Shown here: piece by piece, positions 1 to 64,000 of the stretch | Position numbering within the stretch: position 1 is the stretch's first letter | Layout of the letters: each line of letters begins with the position of its first letter | Source of the DNA: Candidatus Saccharimonadota bacterium | Lineage (GTDB): Bacteria > Patescibacteriota > Saccharimonadia > Saccharimonadales > HK-STAS-PATE-42 | DNA length: 64,000 bases | Direction of reading: 5' to 3' | Assembly (NCBI GenBank): GCA_036826375.1 | Contig: DAISWL010000001.1 | Span: 40,201-104,200, forward strand | Translations under genes and position numbers: made by a program | The notes under the pieces: generated by a model | Seen by the model: the letters and a program-made list of their open reading frames with translations, nothing else | Databases searched by the model: none | Told to the model about the DNA's origin: nothing

Positions 1-428
1 GAAAGTACAAACAAACCACCAAATAAGAATATTACAAAACTTAGGTTTTGAATCATTATTTTAGTTGTAATCACGGAGGTAGAGATAGATGCCTTAGCTT
101 TTTCACGCATCCTAACCGCTAAATAGCTGATTACCGATACTCCCGCTGTTGGCAGAACGAACCCAACAAAGTTAAGCTCTAATGCCAACTTTAATGATTG
201 ATTCTGGCTTATATCTACGCCAAATATCTTGTAGATACTGCGGTACAAATTGCCAGTTGAACGATAGTTCCAATACTGCAAAAACGGAATAATGGCTAAA
301 ATAAAATAATCGGCATTCTTGATGTTTTTCAGGGTTTCTAGTATATTACTGCGTAAAGAATAAATAGTAGCCCCTAGCAACAGCAACGTAACCAAGTTTA
401 TAACCATTTTTAGTTTAGATGTTTTCAT
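1..428 (-). CDS. integral membrane protein, N-terminal part (gene runs off left edge); possibly UPF0104/flippase-like
   Basis: Own minus-strand translation from the ATG at 428..426 (MKTSKLKMVINLVTLLLLGATIYSLRSNILETLKNIKNADYFILAIIPFLQYWNY...) stays open to position 1. It contains hydrophobic helices. It is absent from the ORF track because no stop lies in the window. Confidence 0.5.
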   Translation of the reverse strand, partial: MKTSKLKMVINLVTLLLLGATIYSLRSNILETLKNIKNADYFILAIIPFLQYWNYRSTGNLYRSIYKIFGVDISQNQSLKLALELNFVGFVLPTAGVSVISYLAVRMREKAKASISTSVITTKIMIQNLSFVIFLFGGLFVL

Positions 429-602
429 GCAAATATCAACTCTCAGTTAAAATATATCACCCGATAAAATCAACTTAATCAAAAGTTAATTATACCATCA
501 AGACGCTAATTAAAGTACCCCCAGTCTCGTTTGAAGTAGGGCACTCTCATGTAAAGAATTAAAACTACTTTAAATAATAATATTAATACAACAAAAATTA
601 TA

Positions 603-632
603 TTGACATACTAATGTTATTTATGCTAGTAT
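603..632 (+). promoter_or_regulatory. sigma70-type promoter TTGACA-N18-TGcTAGTAT for the 687 ORF
   Basis: TTGACA lies at 603-608 and TAGTAT at 627-632, preceded by TGC (extended -10). The string tatattgacat...ttatgctagtat recurs upstream of the 35897 ORF and at 33448-33476. Confidence 0.6.
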
Positions 633-686
633 GTAAGCGGTAGACGTAAGTAAAACACAAAAATAATTTGAAAGGAATATACCTCA

Positions 687-60905: not shown

Positions 60906-62278
60906 AATTTATTTATTATATCCTTAAACCGATTTCCCCGCTCTTCAAAATTATTAAACATATCAAAACTCGCCGAACCTGGGCTAAAAATTAACACCTC
61001 TTCGCCTTTTGTATCCGCAATTACGGATTTGATTATCTCTTCAAAATTAGAAGAGTTCGAAGATCCTAAAACTACATAATTACTGTAGCCTTCTTTATCG
61101 AAAGCATCTTTAATTTTTAACCTATTTTTACCATAAATAAAAGTCTTGATTCTCTCTCCGCCAAGCTTAAGTACTTCGGCCAGTTCACCGAACTGAACGC
61201 CTCTATCAAAGCCGCCCAACATTAAAACTATTTTTTTATTGAAAGATTTAACCGCCGCTAACGTTGCGCTAGGGTTTGATGAATAGCTATCATTGTAGAT
61301 TTCCAGACCATCGATAGTTTTTACAAATTCCATTCTGTGCGGCAGACCCTTGAATTTTTTGATTGCGGCCGCTATTGAATTTGAACTTAAGCTTAGAGCT
61401 TTAGCCGTATTCACAGAAGCCATTACATTTTCTAAATTGTGAGCACCAATTAATTTTACATCTGTTGTTGAACAAATTATTTGATCATTAAACTTAATGT
61501 TTTGATTAGAAATATGAGCAAAATTTTTATTTGGGTAGGGCACTTTTTTGCCAGCTGGTGAGTTGATTCCAAATTTGGAACTGATTTTATTTTCGCTAAA
61601 ATAGATTAGCGAATCTTCTTCATTCTGAAACTTGGTGATATTAAACTTAGCATTTCTGTAATCTTCAATATCGTCGTGGACATCTAGGTGATCTTCGGTA
61701 ATCATCAAAATTACCGCCACCTGCGGGCTAAACTTAATATCCCACAGTTGAAAAGATGACAGCTCTAAAACTACATAATCTTCTGGCTGAATCTCGGAGA
61801 TTAAACTTAAAGCCGGCTTGCCAATATTGCCAAGCAAGTGAGATGCTCGGCCATCTTCAATTAACATCTGGTGAATTAAGCTAGATGTTGTCCCCTTGCC
61901 TTTTGTGCCAGTTACGCCAATTAAGTTTTTAGATTTAACTCTGGCAAAGAATTCGTTGGTGCCACTCCAAATAATAGCGCTAGATTCTATTAGCCTAGGG
62001 TTAATTGGTGGTGAGCGAAATATTATCTGAATATCACTATTTTGATTAAGTTTAGATATATAACTTTCGCCACTCGAGAATTGATAGTTCCCCGGAATTT
62101 CGCCGGCGAGATTTTCTTTAGCATCGTAAATAGTTATTTGATTAGAATCCAAACCCTGCTTAGTTAAGTAACTTAGAGTTGCTCTACCTTCTAAACCGTA
62201 ACCAAGAATTGCAACTTTCCCCTTAAACTTAGACCATTCAAATGTTGGCGATTTTAAATCATCCAAACTCAAGACCAT
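60902..62278 (-). CDS. murD: UDP-N-acetylmuramoyl-L-alanine--glutamate ligase (MurD; D-Glu or L-Glu specificity undetermined)
   Basis: Mur ligase P-loop GVTGTKGKGTT with MurD domain order. Confidence 0.85.
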   Translation of the reverse strand: MVLSLDDLKSPTFEWSKFKGKVAILGYGLEGRATLSYLTKQGLDSNQITIYDAKENLAGEIPGNYQFSSGESYISKLNQNSDIQIIFRSPPINPRLIESSAIIWSGTNEFFARVKSKNLIGVTGTKGKGTTSSLIHQMLIEDGRASHLLGNIGKPALSLISEIQPEDYVVLELSSFQLWDIKFSPQVAVILMITEDHLDVHDDIEDYRNAKFNITKFQNEEDSLIYFSENKISSKFGINSPAGKKVPYPNKNFAHISNQNIKFNDQIICSTTDVKLIGAHNLENVMASVNTAKALSLSSNSIAAAIKKFKGLPHRMEFVKTIDGLEIYNDSYSSNPSATLAAVKSFNKKIVLMLGGFDRGVQFGELAEVLKLGGERIKTFIYGKNRLKIKDAFDKEGYSNYVVLGSSNSSNFEEIIKSVIADTKGEEVLIFSPGSASFDMFNNFEERGNRFKDIINKL

Positions 62279-63561
62279 AGTTTTAAGAATTCCTTTTCTA
62301 CTTTTTTGGCGACATCTTGGTGGCTAGGCAAACCGAGAATTGAAACTGCTTGAGAGTTATTGTTTATAAACTTATTTAAGATGTTAGTGATATCTGTTTT
62401 TGTAATGACGTTGATTTTGTTTTTGTAATTTTGGTAATCACGGATTTCATCATCTTCGTAGAAATCGCTAGCGAAATAAGATATGTAGTTATTTGGCGTT
62501 TGCAGTGCTTTCTGGAAGCTACCTAGTGCAAACTGTTTGGCGCCCTTAAGTTCTGAATCTTTAAGCCCACCAGCTGCTATTTTTTTAAGCTCAGAGGTTA
62601 CTAACCTCATAACATTAACTGCGTTTTTATCGCTAACTTGAATGAAGAACTCAAAGCCAGGATATTCTCGCCAATTACCGCAACCGGAGCTCATATCGTA
62701 GACCCAGCCTTTTTCGCGAGCTTTTCCGAAGATGCGCGAATGCAGGGTTCCGGTAATAATGTTGTTCAAAATTTTCATAGCTAGATGTTCTTGCTTGGTG
62801 ATTGGATTTTGCAGGAACATTTCTGCCTCTATACTGAGGGCGCTGGCATCATCTTTTTTAATGAAGAGCAGTGGTTTTTTAATAGGCTTTCCACCCTTAA
62901 TAATATCTAATCGCTTGGTTCCTGAGCTGAGTTTAAACTGATCTACTAAACTTAAGATTGCTTTTTTACGGGGTGCGGAAATTTTACCGGCAATTATGAA
63001 CCGCATATTTTTTTGAGTATGAGTTCGTTTGTAATGCTCTGTAATATCAGCGTGAACTACGTTATCCATTAAGCTTAAATTATCTTTAAAGGTTGTTTTA
63101 GTTAAACCTACATTTTTATTATGGAGCTGAAATAAACGTACGGTATCGTAGTTCCATCTTAGAGCCAACTCTTCTTTAACATTGCCGAATTCTGCCTTAA
63201 ATTCGTTTTCTAAAAACTGTGGCGATTCTAACTGCAATAGAAGATGAGAGAGTACTCGTTTCCATTCGAAATCAGCACAATTGGCATAATAAGCTAGTGA
63301 GGTATGGCTGGTGTAGGCGTTAGTAGATGCCCCATTTTTCTGCAAAACCGCGTTATTTTTACGCATTGTTTTATACTTAGCGTTTGCTCCAAAAGCAAGA
63401 TGCTCCATAATATGAGCTGTCTCCACTTTTTGTTCGCTGATTGCATATCTATCACCCGCTCTGAATTCAAATTCAAAAGCCATTGTATTGGCTCCGGGTA
63501 CATGAATTATTAGGCCCTTAGCGCCGCCTTTTGTTTTAATTTCTTCTACCTTAAAACCCAT
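62269..63561 (-). CDS. M16 family (pitrilysin/insulinase-like) zinc peptidase
   Basis: Inverted zinc motif HIMEH. The promoter TATAAT lies 8 nt before the ATG. Confidence 0.8.
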   Translation of the reverse strand: MGFKVEEIKTKGGAKGLIIHVPGANTMAFEFEFRAGDRYAISEQKVETAHIMEHLAFGANAKYKTMRKNNAVLQKNGASTNAYTSHTSLAYYANCADFEWKRVLSHLLLQLESPQFLENEFKAEFGNVKEELALRWNYDTVRLFQLHNKNVGLTKTTFKDNLSLMDNVVHADITEHYKRTHTQKNMRFIIAGKISAPRKKAILSLVDQFKLSSGTKRLDIIKGGKPIKKPLLFIKKDDASALSIEAEMFLQNPITKQEHLAMKILNNIITGTLHSRIFGKAREKGWVYDMSSGCGNWREYPGFEFFIQVSDKNAVNVMRLVTSELKKIAAGGLKDSELKGAKQFALGSFQKALQTPNNYISYFASDFYEDDEIRDYQNYKNKINVITKTDITNILNKFINNNSQAVSILGLPSHQDVAKKVEKEFLKLWS

Positions 63562-63583
63562 TAAGTTTAATTATAGCACTTTA

Positions 63584-64000
63584 TTATTTTGCTAAGAATA
63601 CCGGCAAGGTTCCATCGGTTAGAGTTGCTGCTGTTGCTAATGTATATATAGTTACTGCAGCCATTGCTGAGGATCTTCTACTTTCATCAATATGTCCCTT
63701 TTTAGCCAACGCATCTATCATGCTTTCAGCCTGCCAGATATCCACCACAAAAACTTGAGGTATTTTTGAATCTACTCCATGCTCATCAACCATAGATTGG
63801 CGGAATGATTCTTGATCAAAAGTAACACCTTTTCTAGTATTTATAACTACGAATGCCTCTTGGTGATTGCCGGTGAGCTCTTTCCTAGCCACGTTCTCAC
63901 ATTCTTGTTCTAGATATTGCTGCTGAGCGGCTCCGTCGTAGCCATCAAAATAATGTCCATTTTTTCTTTCTTGAAAAATAATGTTGGTTAAGTTTATATC
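63584..64000 (-). CDS. hypothetical protein, comparatively G+C-rich, 5' end outside the window
   Basis: The track ORF starts at GTG 63892, but the frame stays open to the window edge (...NGHYFDGYDGAAQQQYLEQECENVARKELTG...). Confidence 0.5.
   Translation of the reverse strand, partial: DINLTNIIFQERKNGHYFDGYDGAAQQQYLEQECENVARKELTGNHQEAFVVINTRKGVTFDQESFRQSMVDEHGVDSKIPQVFVVDIWQAESMIDALAKKGHIDESRRSSAMAAVTIYTLATAATLTDGTLPVFLAK

Follow-up and report, generated by a model that had tools for sequence, protein, structure and literature searches.

A hyper-abundant, oriented ten-base word in a small clade of Saccharibacteria: a putative lineage-specific genomic watermark with a possible role in natural transformation

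Introduction

The closest described counterparts of the element reported here are HIP1 of the cyanobacteria (GCGATCGC) and the uptake words DUS of the Neisseriaceae (AT-GCCGTCTGAA) and USS of the Pasteurellaceae (AAGTGCGGT core). To our knowledge, strict, unskewed, hyper-abundant and clade-specific words are otherwise known solely as DUS, USS, and HIP1. Site conservation across genomes has been described for HIP1 (PMC5861425), methylated HIP1 raises transformation efficiency (bioRxiv 10.1101/2024.09.10.611283), and a watermark role at uptake has been suggested for it, by which food DNA would be told apart from information DNA (bioRxiv 10.64898/2026.06.24.733823). The DNA analysed here, a stretch of 64,000 nt referred to as the window, comes from the Saccharibacteria (TM7, Patescibacteria), which are ultra-small epibiotic bacteria. 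In cultured Saccharibacteria, ComEC-dependent natural transformation has been demonstrated (PMC10633639).

An initial annotation of the window had described a palindromic octamer, TAAGCTTA, and likened it to HIP1, DUS, and USS. The word does belong to the same class of phenomenon, being short, hyper-abundant once codon usage and composition are controlled for, present in genes and spacers, lineage-specific, and positionally conserved; two other parts of that description, the palindrome as the unit and deamination as a possible source of its variants, were not supported (see below).

Results

Abundance and distribution

In the window TAAGCTTA is present in 85 copies, against 4.1 +/- 1.8 (maximum 9) in dinucleotide shuffles and 3.9–6.2 expected from Markov models of order 1–3. 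The hyper-abundance claimed initially is therefore borne out and is stronger than first reported (85 vs about 4). The hexamer AAGCTT was found 119 times (48.8 expected) and not 105–110 times as counted by eye, although the number residing within TAAGCTTA, 85, was correct. The ten-base palindrome TTAAGCTTAA has 34 copies where 0.5–1.0 are expected. Single-transition variants are indeed frequent, with 68 copies of TAAACTTA and 61 of TAAGTTTA, together 129 sites; the remaining one-mismatch variants of TAAGCTTA have 0–7 copies each, and the double-transition form TAAATTTA (n = 8) is at background. The resulting family is dispersed over the entire window (Table 1). For the oriented 10-mer TTAAGYTTAR there are 205 matches against 3.0 expected in shuffles, i.e., 171 distinct sites among the 214 family members (3 expected). 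Enrichment amounts to 14–22-fold for the eight-base core and ~70-fold for the 10-mer. The genome is AT-rich, with 38% GC overall and 35% at 4-fold sites.

High density is not confined to the window, as about 20 kb of flanking DNA from the same genome carry 3.0–3.1 sites/kb. Two relatives have 2.4–4.3 sites/kb, namely 4.0–4.3 in species B (JGI 899-kb contig) and 2.4 in species C. The word is absent (0.044 sites/kb) from 1.42 Mb scanned in 80 other Saccharibacteria species, a set that includes six loci of 35–41% GC. The word is thus specific to one small Saccharibacteria clade. Family sites lie on average 293 bp apart in the window, the word being met about every 300–370 bp, and their spacing is Poisson-like over this short range of 64 kb (CV 0.96).

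About 78% of the sites are intragenic, although sites are denser in non-coding (5.6/kb) than in coding DNA (3.0/kb). Codon-aware nulls were obtained from 69 mechanically called ORFs by shuffling either synonymous codons or codon order. The excess survives both, as TAAGCTTA occurs 68 times in ORFs against 6.0 (synonymous-codon) or 2.2 (codon-order), and the single variants 98 times against 17 or 6.5. The reading frames are those originally described, xxT-AAG-CTT-Axx (K-L) in 53 cases, xTA-AGC-TTA (L-S-L) in 15 and the TAA frame in none, and the reported surplus of LSL tripeptides was found as well (45 vs 14 expected). Codons for Leu, Lys, and Ser are abundant.

The constrained unit is an oriented word

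The palindrome itself is not the constrained element it had been taken for. The palindromic fraction of the sites, 0.32–0.43, is about the background C/(C+T) of 0.35, as would be the case with a free Y, and the data fit the oriented 10-mer TTAAG-YTTAR, in either orientation, as the unit under constraint. Its TTAAG half is strict, its YTTAR half allows a transition at the innermost and at the outermost base, and the perfect palindrome is merely the case where Y = C and R = A. Deviations are tolerated centrally and on a single flank, not at both ends, and the central G:C that is left over is strongly protected at synonymous positions (AAG 40 : AAA 2; AAC 18 : AAT 1). Nor can the C-to-T variants be regarded as products of deamination, since the same variant is kept in different species (GT-GT 13, AC-AC 11). 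Strain-level substitutions within sites are not elevated (18 vs 27 expected). A neutral C-to-T decay estimate (u/v from 4-fold GC) predicts ~120 copies of TAAATTTA, near the single-variant counts, against the 8 observed. The statistics of synonymous sites and flanks, in which one half is strict and the other relaxed, identify the variants as legitimate forms of the word rather than deamination debris.

Information is confined to positions -2 to +8, with no conservation past 10–11 bp. A repeat of the REP or MITE type was rejected, as there is no extended (>20 bp) shared sequence and orthologous alignments show substitutions rather than indels; the alignments to relatives are gap-free, so the sites were not born by insertion. 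A polar word such as Chi or KOPS was also rejected. GC skew is negative over the whole window, i.e., there is one replication polarity, and despite this uniform skew TTAAGYTTAR is balanced between strands (74 plus-only and 63 minus-only sites, with 34 matching both). Relative to transcription there is no bias either (49 sense, 58 antisense). Only one pair of TAAGCTTA sites in the 64 kb lies 30 nt or less apart, and this pair is intragenic (Table 1), so the sites are not arranged as inverted-repeat pairs or terminators.

Conservation and turnover

Positional conservation was measured by comparing the window genome (W) with species B, the two differing at 61% of 4-fold sites. Species B retains 53 of 69 W sites (77%), and the 8-mer is identical in 38 of the 69 (55%) compared with 10% of control 8-mers (p = 1.5e-20). 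Where the amino acids are identical, 11 of 19 sites are identical, against 17% of controls, and 72% of the codons making up the sites are conserved, as opposed to 46% of the same codons elsewhere (p = 5e-9). As position is kept far longer than at neighbouring synonymous sites, the constraint is on the DNA word and not on protein, mRNA, or strand. For 40 of 49 sites present in B only, the W sequence is 1–3 mismatches off the word, vs 10% of control windows; point substitution creates and removes sites. Organism-level selection, uptake-driven drive, and a site-protecting repair bias would each fit this positional conservation. The sampled strains are recombination mosaics in which identical stretches are broken by divergent tracts of 0.2–4 kb.

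Two sites in rny illustrate how the word meets the protein. At 22447–22456 most of 79 motif-free Saccharibacteria have L-K-I, so the site accompanies an I-to-L replacement. At 21712–21721 LKFR is kept in 67 of the 79 outgroups, which makes this site a T variant where the protein needs Phe.

Placement at promoters and repeats

Across the clade, a site starts exactly one base inside the end of TATAAT at 16 of 198 boxes, against ~0.6 expected, and any other offset is found at most 4 times. Promoters with an abutting word include those of ftsE, uppP, prfA, the M1 and M16 peptidases, and tRNA-Ser. At uppP, the promoter of which looks like a leaderless type, the TATAAT-TAAGCTTA-ATG order was as annotated, with the octamer at 16482–16489. 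The ftsE arrangement is kept in all three species (L084 5697 and L085 4539 in the relatives). Many promoters, leaderless-type ones included, are without the word. The word also borders other repeats, as had been noticed, i.e., a 105-nt repeat (36099, 36766) and the end of a 46-nt tandem array (33085–33095).

Genes for competence and methylation

The ComM/YifB gene cited in the initial annotation is present; the gene is widespread and, taken alone, weak support. ComM elsewhere is a helicase promoting branch migration during transformation. The competence context further comprises recO and the weak ComF-like match in the window (Table 1), and a RadC gene in a relative. No ComEC, DprA, or pilus genes and no candidate receptor for the word were found in the clade DNA examined (~15% of a genome). 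Likewise, ~150 kb of clade DNA (the 64-kb window and ~90 kb more, ~15% of a genome) yielded no DNA methyltransferase or AAGCTT-type restriction-modification gene, the sole methyltransferases there being a Trm11-like tRNA enzyme and FtsJ.

Table 1. The word family, individual sites and relevant genes, with coordinates in the window.
Feature	Coordinates	Strand	Remarks
Dispersed 8-base family	1..64000	.	214 sites: 85 TAAGCTTA, 68 TAAACTTA, 61 TAAGTTTA
ComM/YifB-family AAA ATPase	2596..4119	-	TIGR00368, 596 bits
Phosphoribosyltransferase-domain protein	8403..9440	-	weak ComF-family match, assignment uncertain (TIGR00201, E = 1.8e-7, far below curated cut-off)
TTAAGCTTAG at tRNA-Ser	15664..15673	-	right after TATAAT, 3 nt ahead of tRNA-Ser 5' end (15572-15661, minus)
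TTAAGCTTAA at uppP/BacA	16481..16490	.	fills gap between -10 (TATAAT, minus strand, 16490-16495) and ATG
TTAAGCTTAA at heavy-metal P-type ATPase gene	18391..18400	.	adjoins TATAAT upstream of the gene, divergent intergenic region
TTAAGTTTAG in rny (RNase Y)	21712..21721	-	read L-K-F-R
TTAAGCTTAG in rny (RNase Y)	22447..22456	-	read L-K-L-S
RecO recombination mediator	46036..46722	-	Pfam RecO_N/RecO_C on identical protein
TTAAGTTTAAGTTTAA upstream of recO	46732..46747	+	overlapping double copy, 6-nt offset
Pair of full TAAGCTTA sites	47422..47458	-	sole pair within 30 nt
TTAAGTTTAA at M1 aminopeptidase promoter	50633..50642	+	adjoins TATAAT; minus-strand gene
TTAAGTTTAG at ftsE promoter	56707..56716	-	adjoins TATAAT
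TTAAGTTTAA at M16 peptidase gene	63561..63570	+	between TATAAT and ATG; minus-strand gene

Discussion

A candidate transformation watermark

By analogy with known systems, the word may be viewed as a lineage-specific genomic watermark kept by DNA-level selection or drive, for which recognition in natural transformation is tentatively the likeliest role. This assignment draws on a class of words known from DUS, USS, and HIP1, on ComEC-dependent transformability, and on the mosaic structure of the strains. A sequence-specific protein acting in transformation, either when DNA is taken up or in a later step, might recognise the word in double-stranded DNA; candidates for this putative reader include a pilin, a receptor, and a methylation-dependent factor. 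Conspecific DNA would then be preferentially taken up or recombined, and word-bearing alleles would spread by selection or a selection-like molecular drive, which would both multiply and preserve the sites. Several observations speak against an uptake tag. The ~150 kb of clade DNA yielded neither a candidate receptor nor a DNA methyltransferase. The density of ~2.7–3.3 sites/kb, roughly three times that of DUS and USS, seems above what tagging of fragments needs; the peak abutting TATAAT is not predicted and hints at an interaction with transcription; the sites are without the terminator pairing found in many DUS; and Saccharibacteria outside the clade transform without such a word.

Alternative explanations

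An orphan DNA methyltransferase recognising the AGCT/AAGCTT core would make the word a methylation-linked element of the HIP1 type, which is considered unlikely. The word would then either arise and persist as a side effect of a repair ratchet, methyl-directed or resembling very-short-patch repair, as in Elhai's HIP model, or be under selection as a closely spaced methylation mark that serves repair or replication. The palindromes AGCT and AAGCTT in the core are typical methyltransferase targets, but 60% of the sites are without them and carry AAGTTT or AAACTT instead, and these are equally enriched and conserved; the asymmetry of a strict and a relaxed half is, moreover, not what a palindromic Type II methyltransferase would usually recognise. 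Density is like that of the densest HIP1 genomes and site conservation resembles that of HIP1 sites, yet deviations are central here whereas those of HIP1 are mainly terminal, the pattern that an inner methyltransferase core leaves. Changes between full form and variant are the commonest polymorphism at sites (5/10), which would suit methylation. A patch repair from T:G to C:G cannot enrich six A/T positions, and m5C hypermutability is not apparent, as substitutions among strains are not in excess at the sites (18 vs 27 expected). Alternate HIPs in cyanobacteria track cognate methyltransferases (PMC4390886), which counts in favour of methylation, whereas the ~150 kb of clade DNA did not reveal a DNA methyltransferase.

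It is also doubtful that the sites are bound by an abundant clade-specific chromosomal protein that structures the nucleoid or acts as a global regulator, in which case selection would act on chromosome organisation or transcription and not on DNA exchange. A 10-bp quasi-palindrome of ~17 bits, strict on one side and relaxed on the other, is what the footprint of a protein on double-stranded DNA typically looks like, but we know of no nucleoid protein or regulator tied to a strict word enriched ~70-fold. The exact placement at TATAAT (16/198 boxes vs ~0.6 expected) would suit such a protein, yet many promoters are without the word, and the peak may in part reflect the few free bases in very short spacers, the flanks of which already match the word through the final T of TATAAT and the first base of ATG. 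Similarly, the higher non-coding density has to be set against the ~78% of sites that are intragenic and Poisson-spaced. For HIP1, a nucleoid role was the one preferred by Xu et al.

It is very improbable that the word is a non-functional by-product of codon or dipeptide usage, AT bias, context-dependent mutation, decayed copies of a miniature mobile element, or deamination debris of a methylated palindrome, for in spite of an AT-rich genome with abundant Leu, Lys, and Ser codons the 68 copies observed compare with 6.0 and 2.2 in codon shuffles, non-coding DNA is enriched too, outgroups of equal GC are without the word, conservation is five-fold over controls across saturated synonymous divergence, alignments are gap-free, the lack of conservation past 10–11 bp speaks against a REP or MITE, and TAAATTTA stays at background (8) where decay predicts ~120.

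Comparison with known systems

The watermark reading rests in part on its resemblance to described words. Like the Saccharibacteria word, HIP1 has a hyper-abundant eight-base core (15–300-fold), reaches up to ~1 site/300 bp in coding DNA (all usable frames) and non-coding DNA, spreads by substitution, has sites and one-off variants conserved above control words, and is lineage specific, its role being debated with a transformation watermark and a nucleoid role as the current candidates. A 10–90 kb periodicity of site density is a further trait of HIP elements. On the other hand, TTAAGYTTAR is AT-rich, unrelated in sequence, and found in Patescibacteria rather than cyanobacteria, and no cognate methyltransferase was found in ~150 kb of clade DNA. 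Selection acts on an asymmetric unit (TTAAG + YTTAR) where HIP1 is a true palindrome, and deviations are tolerated at the centre and one flank where those of HIP1 are mainly at the outer ends.

With DUS and USS the word shares an oriented design of 9–12 nt occurring equally on both strands, a family- or genus-specific dialect, about 10^3 copies per genome, a mostly intragenic location where the protein tolerates it at some amino-acid cost, and gain by point mutation, as well as a wider host group in which natural competence, with type IV pili and Com proteins, is known, and a recombinogenic population. It differs in being quasi-palindromic and about three times denser, in its fixed placement against -10 boxes, and, from DUS, in the lack of inverted terminator pairs; no candidate for a ComP-like receptor emerged from the clade DNA examined, and the uptake role is proposed by analogy.

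For Campylobacter jejuni, Beauchamp and colleagues are said to have described in 2017 a methylation-dependent self-recognition in transformation via CtsM and RAATTY. This too is a short, AT-rich, R/Y-degenerate word that marks self DNA for transformation and is read on double-stranded DNA whatever the orientation. RAATTY is, however, a 6-mer that is not notably over-represented, and it needs a known orphan m6A methyltransferase, of which none was found here in ~150 kb of clade DNA. Chi and KOPS/AIMS, finally, resemble the word as strict eight-base sequences that are over-represented and conserved, but Chi and KOPS are strongly skewed to the leading strand whereas TTAAGYTTAR is unskewed (74 vs 63).

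A hyper-abundant word confined to one clade

The octamer TAAGCTTA occurs 85 times in the 64 kb of the window, against 4.1 ± 1.8 copies (maximum 9) in dinucleotide-preserving shuffles and an expectation of 3.9–6.2 from Markov models of order 1–3. AAGCTT itself was found 119 times (48.8 expected), and 85 of the 119 lie within the octamer. The only other enriched neighbours of the octamer are its single-transition variants TAAACTTA (68 copies) and TAAGTTTA (61 copies); all remaining one-mismatch variants have 0–7 copies each, and the double transition TAAATTTA, with 8 copies, is at chance expectation. 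The full word and its two variants are referred to below as family sites and, after their central dinucleotide, as GC, GT, and AC. In 69 ORFs called mechanically as the longest non-overlapping ones, the full word is present 68 times versus 6.0 after synonymous-codon shuffling and 2.2 after codon-order shuffling, and the variants 98 times versus 17 and 6.5. The over-abundance described in the initial annotation therefore withstands control for codon usage, with an observed/expected ratio above 10 and not near 1, and the sites are read in the two frames it had given, K-L (53) and L-S-L (15); the TAA frame is empty. Proteins of the window show a three-fold enrichment of LSL tripeptides. Site density is 5.6/kb in non-coding and 3.0/kb in coding DNA, about what would result from one of the three frames being closed to the word. 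The spacing of sites is Poisson-like (CV 0.96), and conservation around them ends at about 11 bp, so that they are not fragments of a longer repeat.

The window belongs to a Saccharibacteria (TM7) genome, as judged from RNase Y, aminoacyl-tRNA synthetases, MurD/MurL, heliorhodopsin, and other genes. Proteins identical to those of the window are on deposit under the name "MAG TPA: Candidatus Saccharibacteria bacterium," their contigs reaching 182 kb, and recur in several ENA, Logan, and JGI assemblies; samples with this species include ERZ794922, ERZ22666005/151, SRR24112502/3, and JGI 3300056850. Relatives of its M1 aminopeptidase are found at 98% identity, then at 72–78%, and next only at 40%; those at 72–78% represent two further species, B and C. 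The density is not confined to the window: about 19.5 kb flanking both of its ends carry 3.0–3.1 sites/kb, and the same family is found at 4.0–4.3 sites/kb in species B (loci L084 and L348, from the 899,462-bp JGI contig 3300056789 Ga0558720_00018) and at 2.4 sites/kb in species C (locus L085). As outgroups, 80 other Saccharibacteria species were fetched via RNase Y (67–74% identity; 1.42 Mb, six loci at 35–41% GC). These contain 0.044 family sites/kb, 14 matches in all to the 10-mer TTAAGYTTAR (see below), and no other enriched octamer palindrome in any species. The word is genome-wide, common to one discrete clade, and absent outside it.

Two scans of viral contigs gave no phage contig with a clade-like density (maximum 5 full sites in 8–15 kb), and among the matches listed in a metagenome-wide scan for pairs of TTAAGCTTAA, the fully palindromic 10-nt form, were chance hits, local tandem arrays, and one ORF-free contig of 26% GC (L328). 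Five unrelated metagenome contigs (L232, L240, L251, L320, and L321) hold local tandem arrays of TAAGCTTA-containing units (for example, 40 copies within 1.8 kb), which marks them as satellites and sets them apart from the dispersed pattern of the clade. A raw search on TAAGCTTA yields primers only, and a literature search returned no report of uptake sequences or iterated palindromes in Saccharibacteria.

The constrained unit

Synonymous positions reveal that either half of the word, but not both, may be relaxed. Where the right half reads TTTA (Phe) the preceding Lys codon is AAG in 40 cases and AAA in two, compared with 18 AAG and 19 AAA for K-F elsewhere (p = 2e-6). Where the left half reads TAAA (Asn) the codon is AAC in 18 cases and AAT in one, compared with 345 and 571 elsewhere (p = 4e-7). 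With the other half intact the centre is free (AAG 53 to AAA 27, AGC 15 to AGT 14; neither differs from background), and the palindromic share of sites, 0.32–0.43 in six sequence sets, consequently matches the background C/(C+T) of 0.35 at 4-fold sites. The flanks are asymmetric. Single-variant sites oriented as TAAGTTTA (n = 315) have T as 5′ neighbour in 82% and A or G as 3′ neighbour in 51 and 39%, and this persists in non-coding sites (T in 93%, n = 68) and whichever way the sites face with respect to genes. Full sites flanked by C…G number two versus 11.9 under independent flanks; this deficit and the asymmetry in non-coding DNA disfavour a symmetric dimer with independent flanks. From the either-half rule and the asymmetric flanks it follows that the unit is 5′-TTAAG-YTTAR-3′, in which a strict half adjoins a relaxed one, in either orientation. 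The palindrome, which had been taken as the unit in the initial annotation, is its self-complementary instance TTAAGCTTAA, present at a background share.

The 10-mer has 205 matches at 171 distinct sites (3.0 ± 2.0 expected). The GC skew of the window is uniform, and the 10-mer shows no strand bias (74 versus 63); sense and antisense copies are likewise balanced (49 versus 58). This balance, together with the sites in spacers, rules out a function at the RNA or peptide level. An oriented 10-mer is constrained as DNA, irrespective of strand, transcription, and coding, and in one clade only.

Conservation and turnover of sites

The window's species was compared with species B over 24 orthologous genes (22.9 kb of codon alignment, 74% nucleotide identity; 61% divergence at 4-fold sites in a 13-gene subset). 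A family member is present at the same position in species B for 53 of 69 sites, and the 8-mers are identical at 38 of the 69 versus 10% of same-frame control 8-mers (p = 1.5e-20) or, where the amino acids are identical, at 11 of 19 versus 17% of controls. Codons composing the word are 72% conserved inside sites versus 46% outside (p = 5e-9), a test that has been used to argue for selection on HIP1 (PMC5861425). The constraint is old enough to have outlasted saturation at synonymous sites. Conservation alone fits selection, drive, or a site-protecting repair bias alike.

Sites nevertheless turn over, as only 12 of 32 are retained in the more distant species C, which was used sparingly on account of frameshifted genes, perhaps assembly errors. 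At 40 of 49 sites found only in species B the window's species is one to three mismatches from the word, versus 10% of control windows, and the alignments are ungapped; sites are thus gained and lost by point substitution. Amino-acid cost relative to outgroups could be followed in one gene, rny, synteny with the 80 outgroup loci being otherwise lost: one of its two sites goes with a replacement of I by L, as judged from 79 outgroups, and the other is a T variant on a conserved K-F.

It had been suggested that the C-to-T variants arise by deamination of a methylated central C. Between the two species, however, they are conserved as themselves (GT in both 13, AC in both 11, GC in both 14, full-to-variant changes in either direction 15, changes between variants none), closely related strains show 18 substitutions inside sites versus 27 expected, a normal or low rate, and the remaining central G:C is protected. 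An m5C-deamination origin is therefore rejected.

Sites at promoters

In clade sequences a family site begins directly after TATAAT in 16 of 198 cases versus about 0.6 expected, and every other offset from –45 to +39 has at most four sites. At these promoters the last T of the –10 box falls within the 10-mer, which in several genes ends on the A of the start codon, giving TATAAT-TAAGCTTA-ATG at uppP, as the initial annotation had seen, and likewise at the M16 peptidase gene and at prfA of species B. Other word-bearing promoters are followed by an SD-containing leader. The arrangement at ftsE is identical in all three species. In the window these promoters (table) are mostly of the extended –10 type (TGnTATAAT) without an obvious –35, and several of the genes behind them look leaderless or have leaders of 1–3 nt. 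Placement may be partly opportunistic, with eight unconstrained bases and flanks that already match, yet no uptake-tag model explains the sharpness of the peak.

Gene exchange and neighbouring features

The window encodes the ComM/YifB-like protein noted earlier, RecO, and a weak ComF-like protein. Strains of its species are mosaics in which identical stretches alternate with divergent tracts of 0.2–4 kb, and in one strain the MurI-type racemase of species B replaces MurL beside an identical M16 peptidase gene; homologous exchange is thus active within the clade. The route to D-Glu in peptidoglycan is swapped at a fixed locus. Saccharibacteria are naturally transformable through ComEC, and their Com system is dispensable for growth, which argues for gene exchange and not nucleotide supply (PMC10633639).

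Neither the window nor the other clade DNA reached (about 15% of a genome) was found to encode a DNA methyltransferase, a restriction enzyme, or any known defence protein, using Pfam, NCBIfam, and PADLOC on essentially all window ORFs and precomputed Pfam calls for relatives. At this coverage the lack of a methyltransferase or receptor gene carries little weight. One ORF matching N6_N4_Mtase was set aside as a tRNA methyltransferase (table).

The word also stands at the edges of other repeats, as first reported: an array of 46-nt units ends at a TTAAGCTTAA site, and both copies of a 105-nt repeat, which may be a duplicated promoter or leader, start with CTTAAGCTTAATTGTCAATCAT. A GT2 glycosyltransferase gene of 984 bp has no signature site versus about three expected. 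Site-free genes would fit recent acquisition, the choice of genes being post hoc. The heliorhodopsin gene suggests that these epibionts live exposed to light, probably in an aquatic or wastewater setting.

Location of promoter-associated sites and other features (window coordinates unless a related contig is named)
Feature	Location	Strand	Remarks
TATAAT boxes followed at once by the signature word	15673–15678, 16490–16495, 18400–18405, 50642–50647, 56716–56721, 63570–63575	minus	
46-nt unit GTCATCCTGAACTTGATTCAGGATCCCCCAAGAGAAGCCACTGCCC	32840–33085		four tandem copies (100, 100, 83, 67% identity); hairpin ATCCTGAA-CTTG-TTCAGGAT in each unit; upstream of M50 (RseP-like) peptidase gene
Inverted partial copy of 46-nt unit	32840–32877		
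Site ending the 46-nt array	33087–33096		
105-nt direct repeat	36099–36203, 36766–36870		96% identical; upstream of each of two consecutive hypothetical genes (35025–35897, 36260–36715)
Site-free genes, mostly hypothetical	687–1280, 5345–6079, 35025–35897, 36260–36715		last two: no family sites, no Pfam, NCBIfam, or PADLOC match
Site-free His_Phos_1 gene	43568–44116		
GT2 glycosyltransferase and polysaccharide deacetylase	53295–54995		between ftsX and ABC transporter; absent in species B and C
MurL-type UDP-MurNAc-L-Ala-L-Glu epimerase	59607–60905		beside murD
MurI-type Asp/Glu racemase instead	L084:2424–3068 (species B), L085:1604–2248 (species C), L213:8243–8893	opposite	L213: strain with identical M16 peptidase
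Heliorhodopsin	12432–13223; L348:482–1264 (species B)		Pfam PF18761, E = 1.6e-85; conserved in species B
Lysyl-tRNA synthetase	10149–11684; L348:1964–4279		511 aa; 771 aa in species B, with extra tRNA-synt_2c/tRNA_SAD (AlaX-like editing) domains
Toxin-antitoxin-like pairs	18903–19548, 20527–21044, 24239–24888		in a 6-kb region around rny and two tRNA-Met genes; PIN-domain gene with small upstream ORF (twice), RelB/YafQ-ParE (once)
tRNA guanine-N2 methyltransferase	33537–34706		Trm11/TIGR01177-like by NCBIfam and PDB matches
Strain mosaics	42600–64000, 1–11760		versus L086, L087, L210, L211, L213, L214: identical over kilobases, then tracts 1–6% different; in L086 the M1 peptidase gene alone 2% different
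Split ABC transporter, M1 peptidase, and ComM ORFs	L085:6329–9779, L210:7645–9167		JGI sample 3300056850; either assembly frameshifts or pseudogenes; both loci used with caution

Functional interpretation

We consider it plausible, if short of probable, that the word is a self-recognition tag in natural transformation, kept by selection or by uptake/recombination drive. To our knowledge, words that are at once strict, unskewed, hyper-abundant, and lineage-specific are otherwise represented by HIP1 and by the uptake sequences of Neisseriaceae/Pasteurellaceae only. More doubtful is the explanation that an abundant chromosomal protein or a global regulator binds the word; the main argument for it is the promoter peak. 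It is similarly doubtful that the word is a methylation-linked element in the HIP sense: the word is asymmetric, the forms lacking AGCT have equal standing, there is no hypermutability, and degeneracy is restricted to the centre, features more readily reconciled with a receptor site of the DUS/USS kind than with a Type II methyltransferase core and its repair ratchet. A non-functional by-product of any kind is highly improbable, and the residual probability is assigned to mechanisms outside these readings.

If the self-recognition tag is taken further, it is tempting to speculate that the Candidate Phyla Radiation has yielded, in this word, its first sequence for DNA uptake or self-recognition. 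On this tentative model the chromosome would be tagged about 2,500 times with TTAAGYTTAR, and a transformation protein reading the strict and relaxed half-sites would distinguish DNA of its own species, destined for recombination, from host or foreign DNA, which would serve as a nucleotide source; a set of housekeeping promoters would have recruited the protein or the tag to their –10/start junction. A protein that reads the word is predicted to bind TTAAGCTTAA and TTAAGTTTAG but not TTAAATTTAA. The word also bears on how nucleotide-auxotrophic epibionts tell food DNA from information DNA. As far as we know, natural transformation is currently the sole means of genetic manipulation in Saccharibacteria; should uptake or recombination prove to be biased by the word, its inclusion in donor DNA could be of practical importance in this clade.

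The boundary is clean, the word being missing altogether from relatives whose RNase Y is 73% identical, and with the clear recognition logic of a strict and a relaxed half and a near-complete 899-kb genome the question is open to genome comparison, in which genes gained on the branch to the clade are candidate readers or writers. We know of few hyper-abundant signature words. The best known is HIP1, the function of which has been disputed for 30 years. HIP1 has been linked to methylation-dependent transformation (bioRxiv 10.1101/2024.09.10.611283) and proposed as a watermark separating food DNA from information DNA (bioRxiv 10.64898/2026.06.24.733823). The word described here is an independent and evolutionarily young case in another phylum than HIP1.
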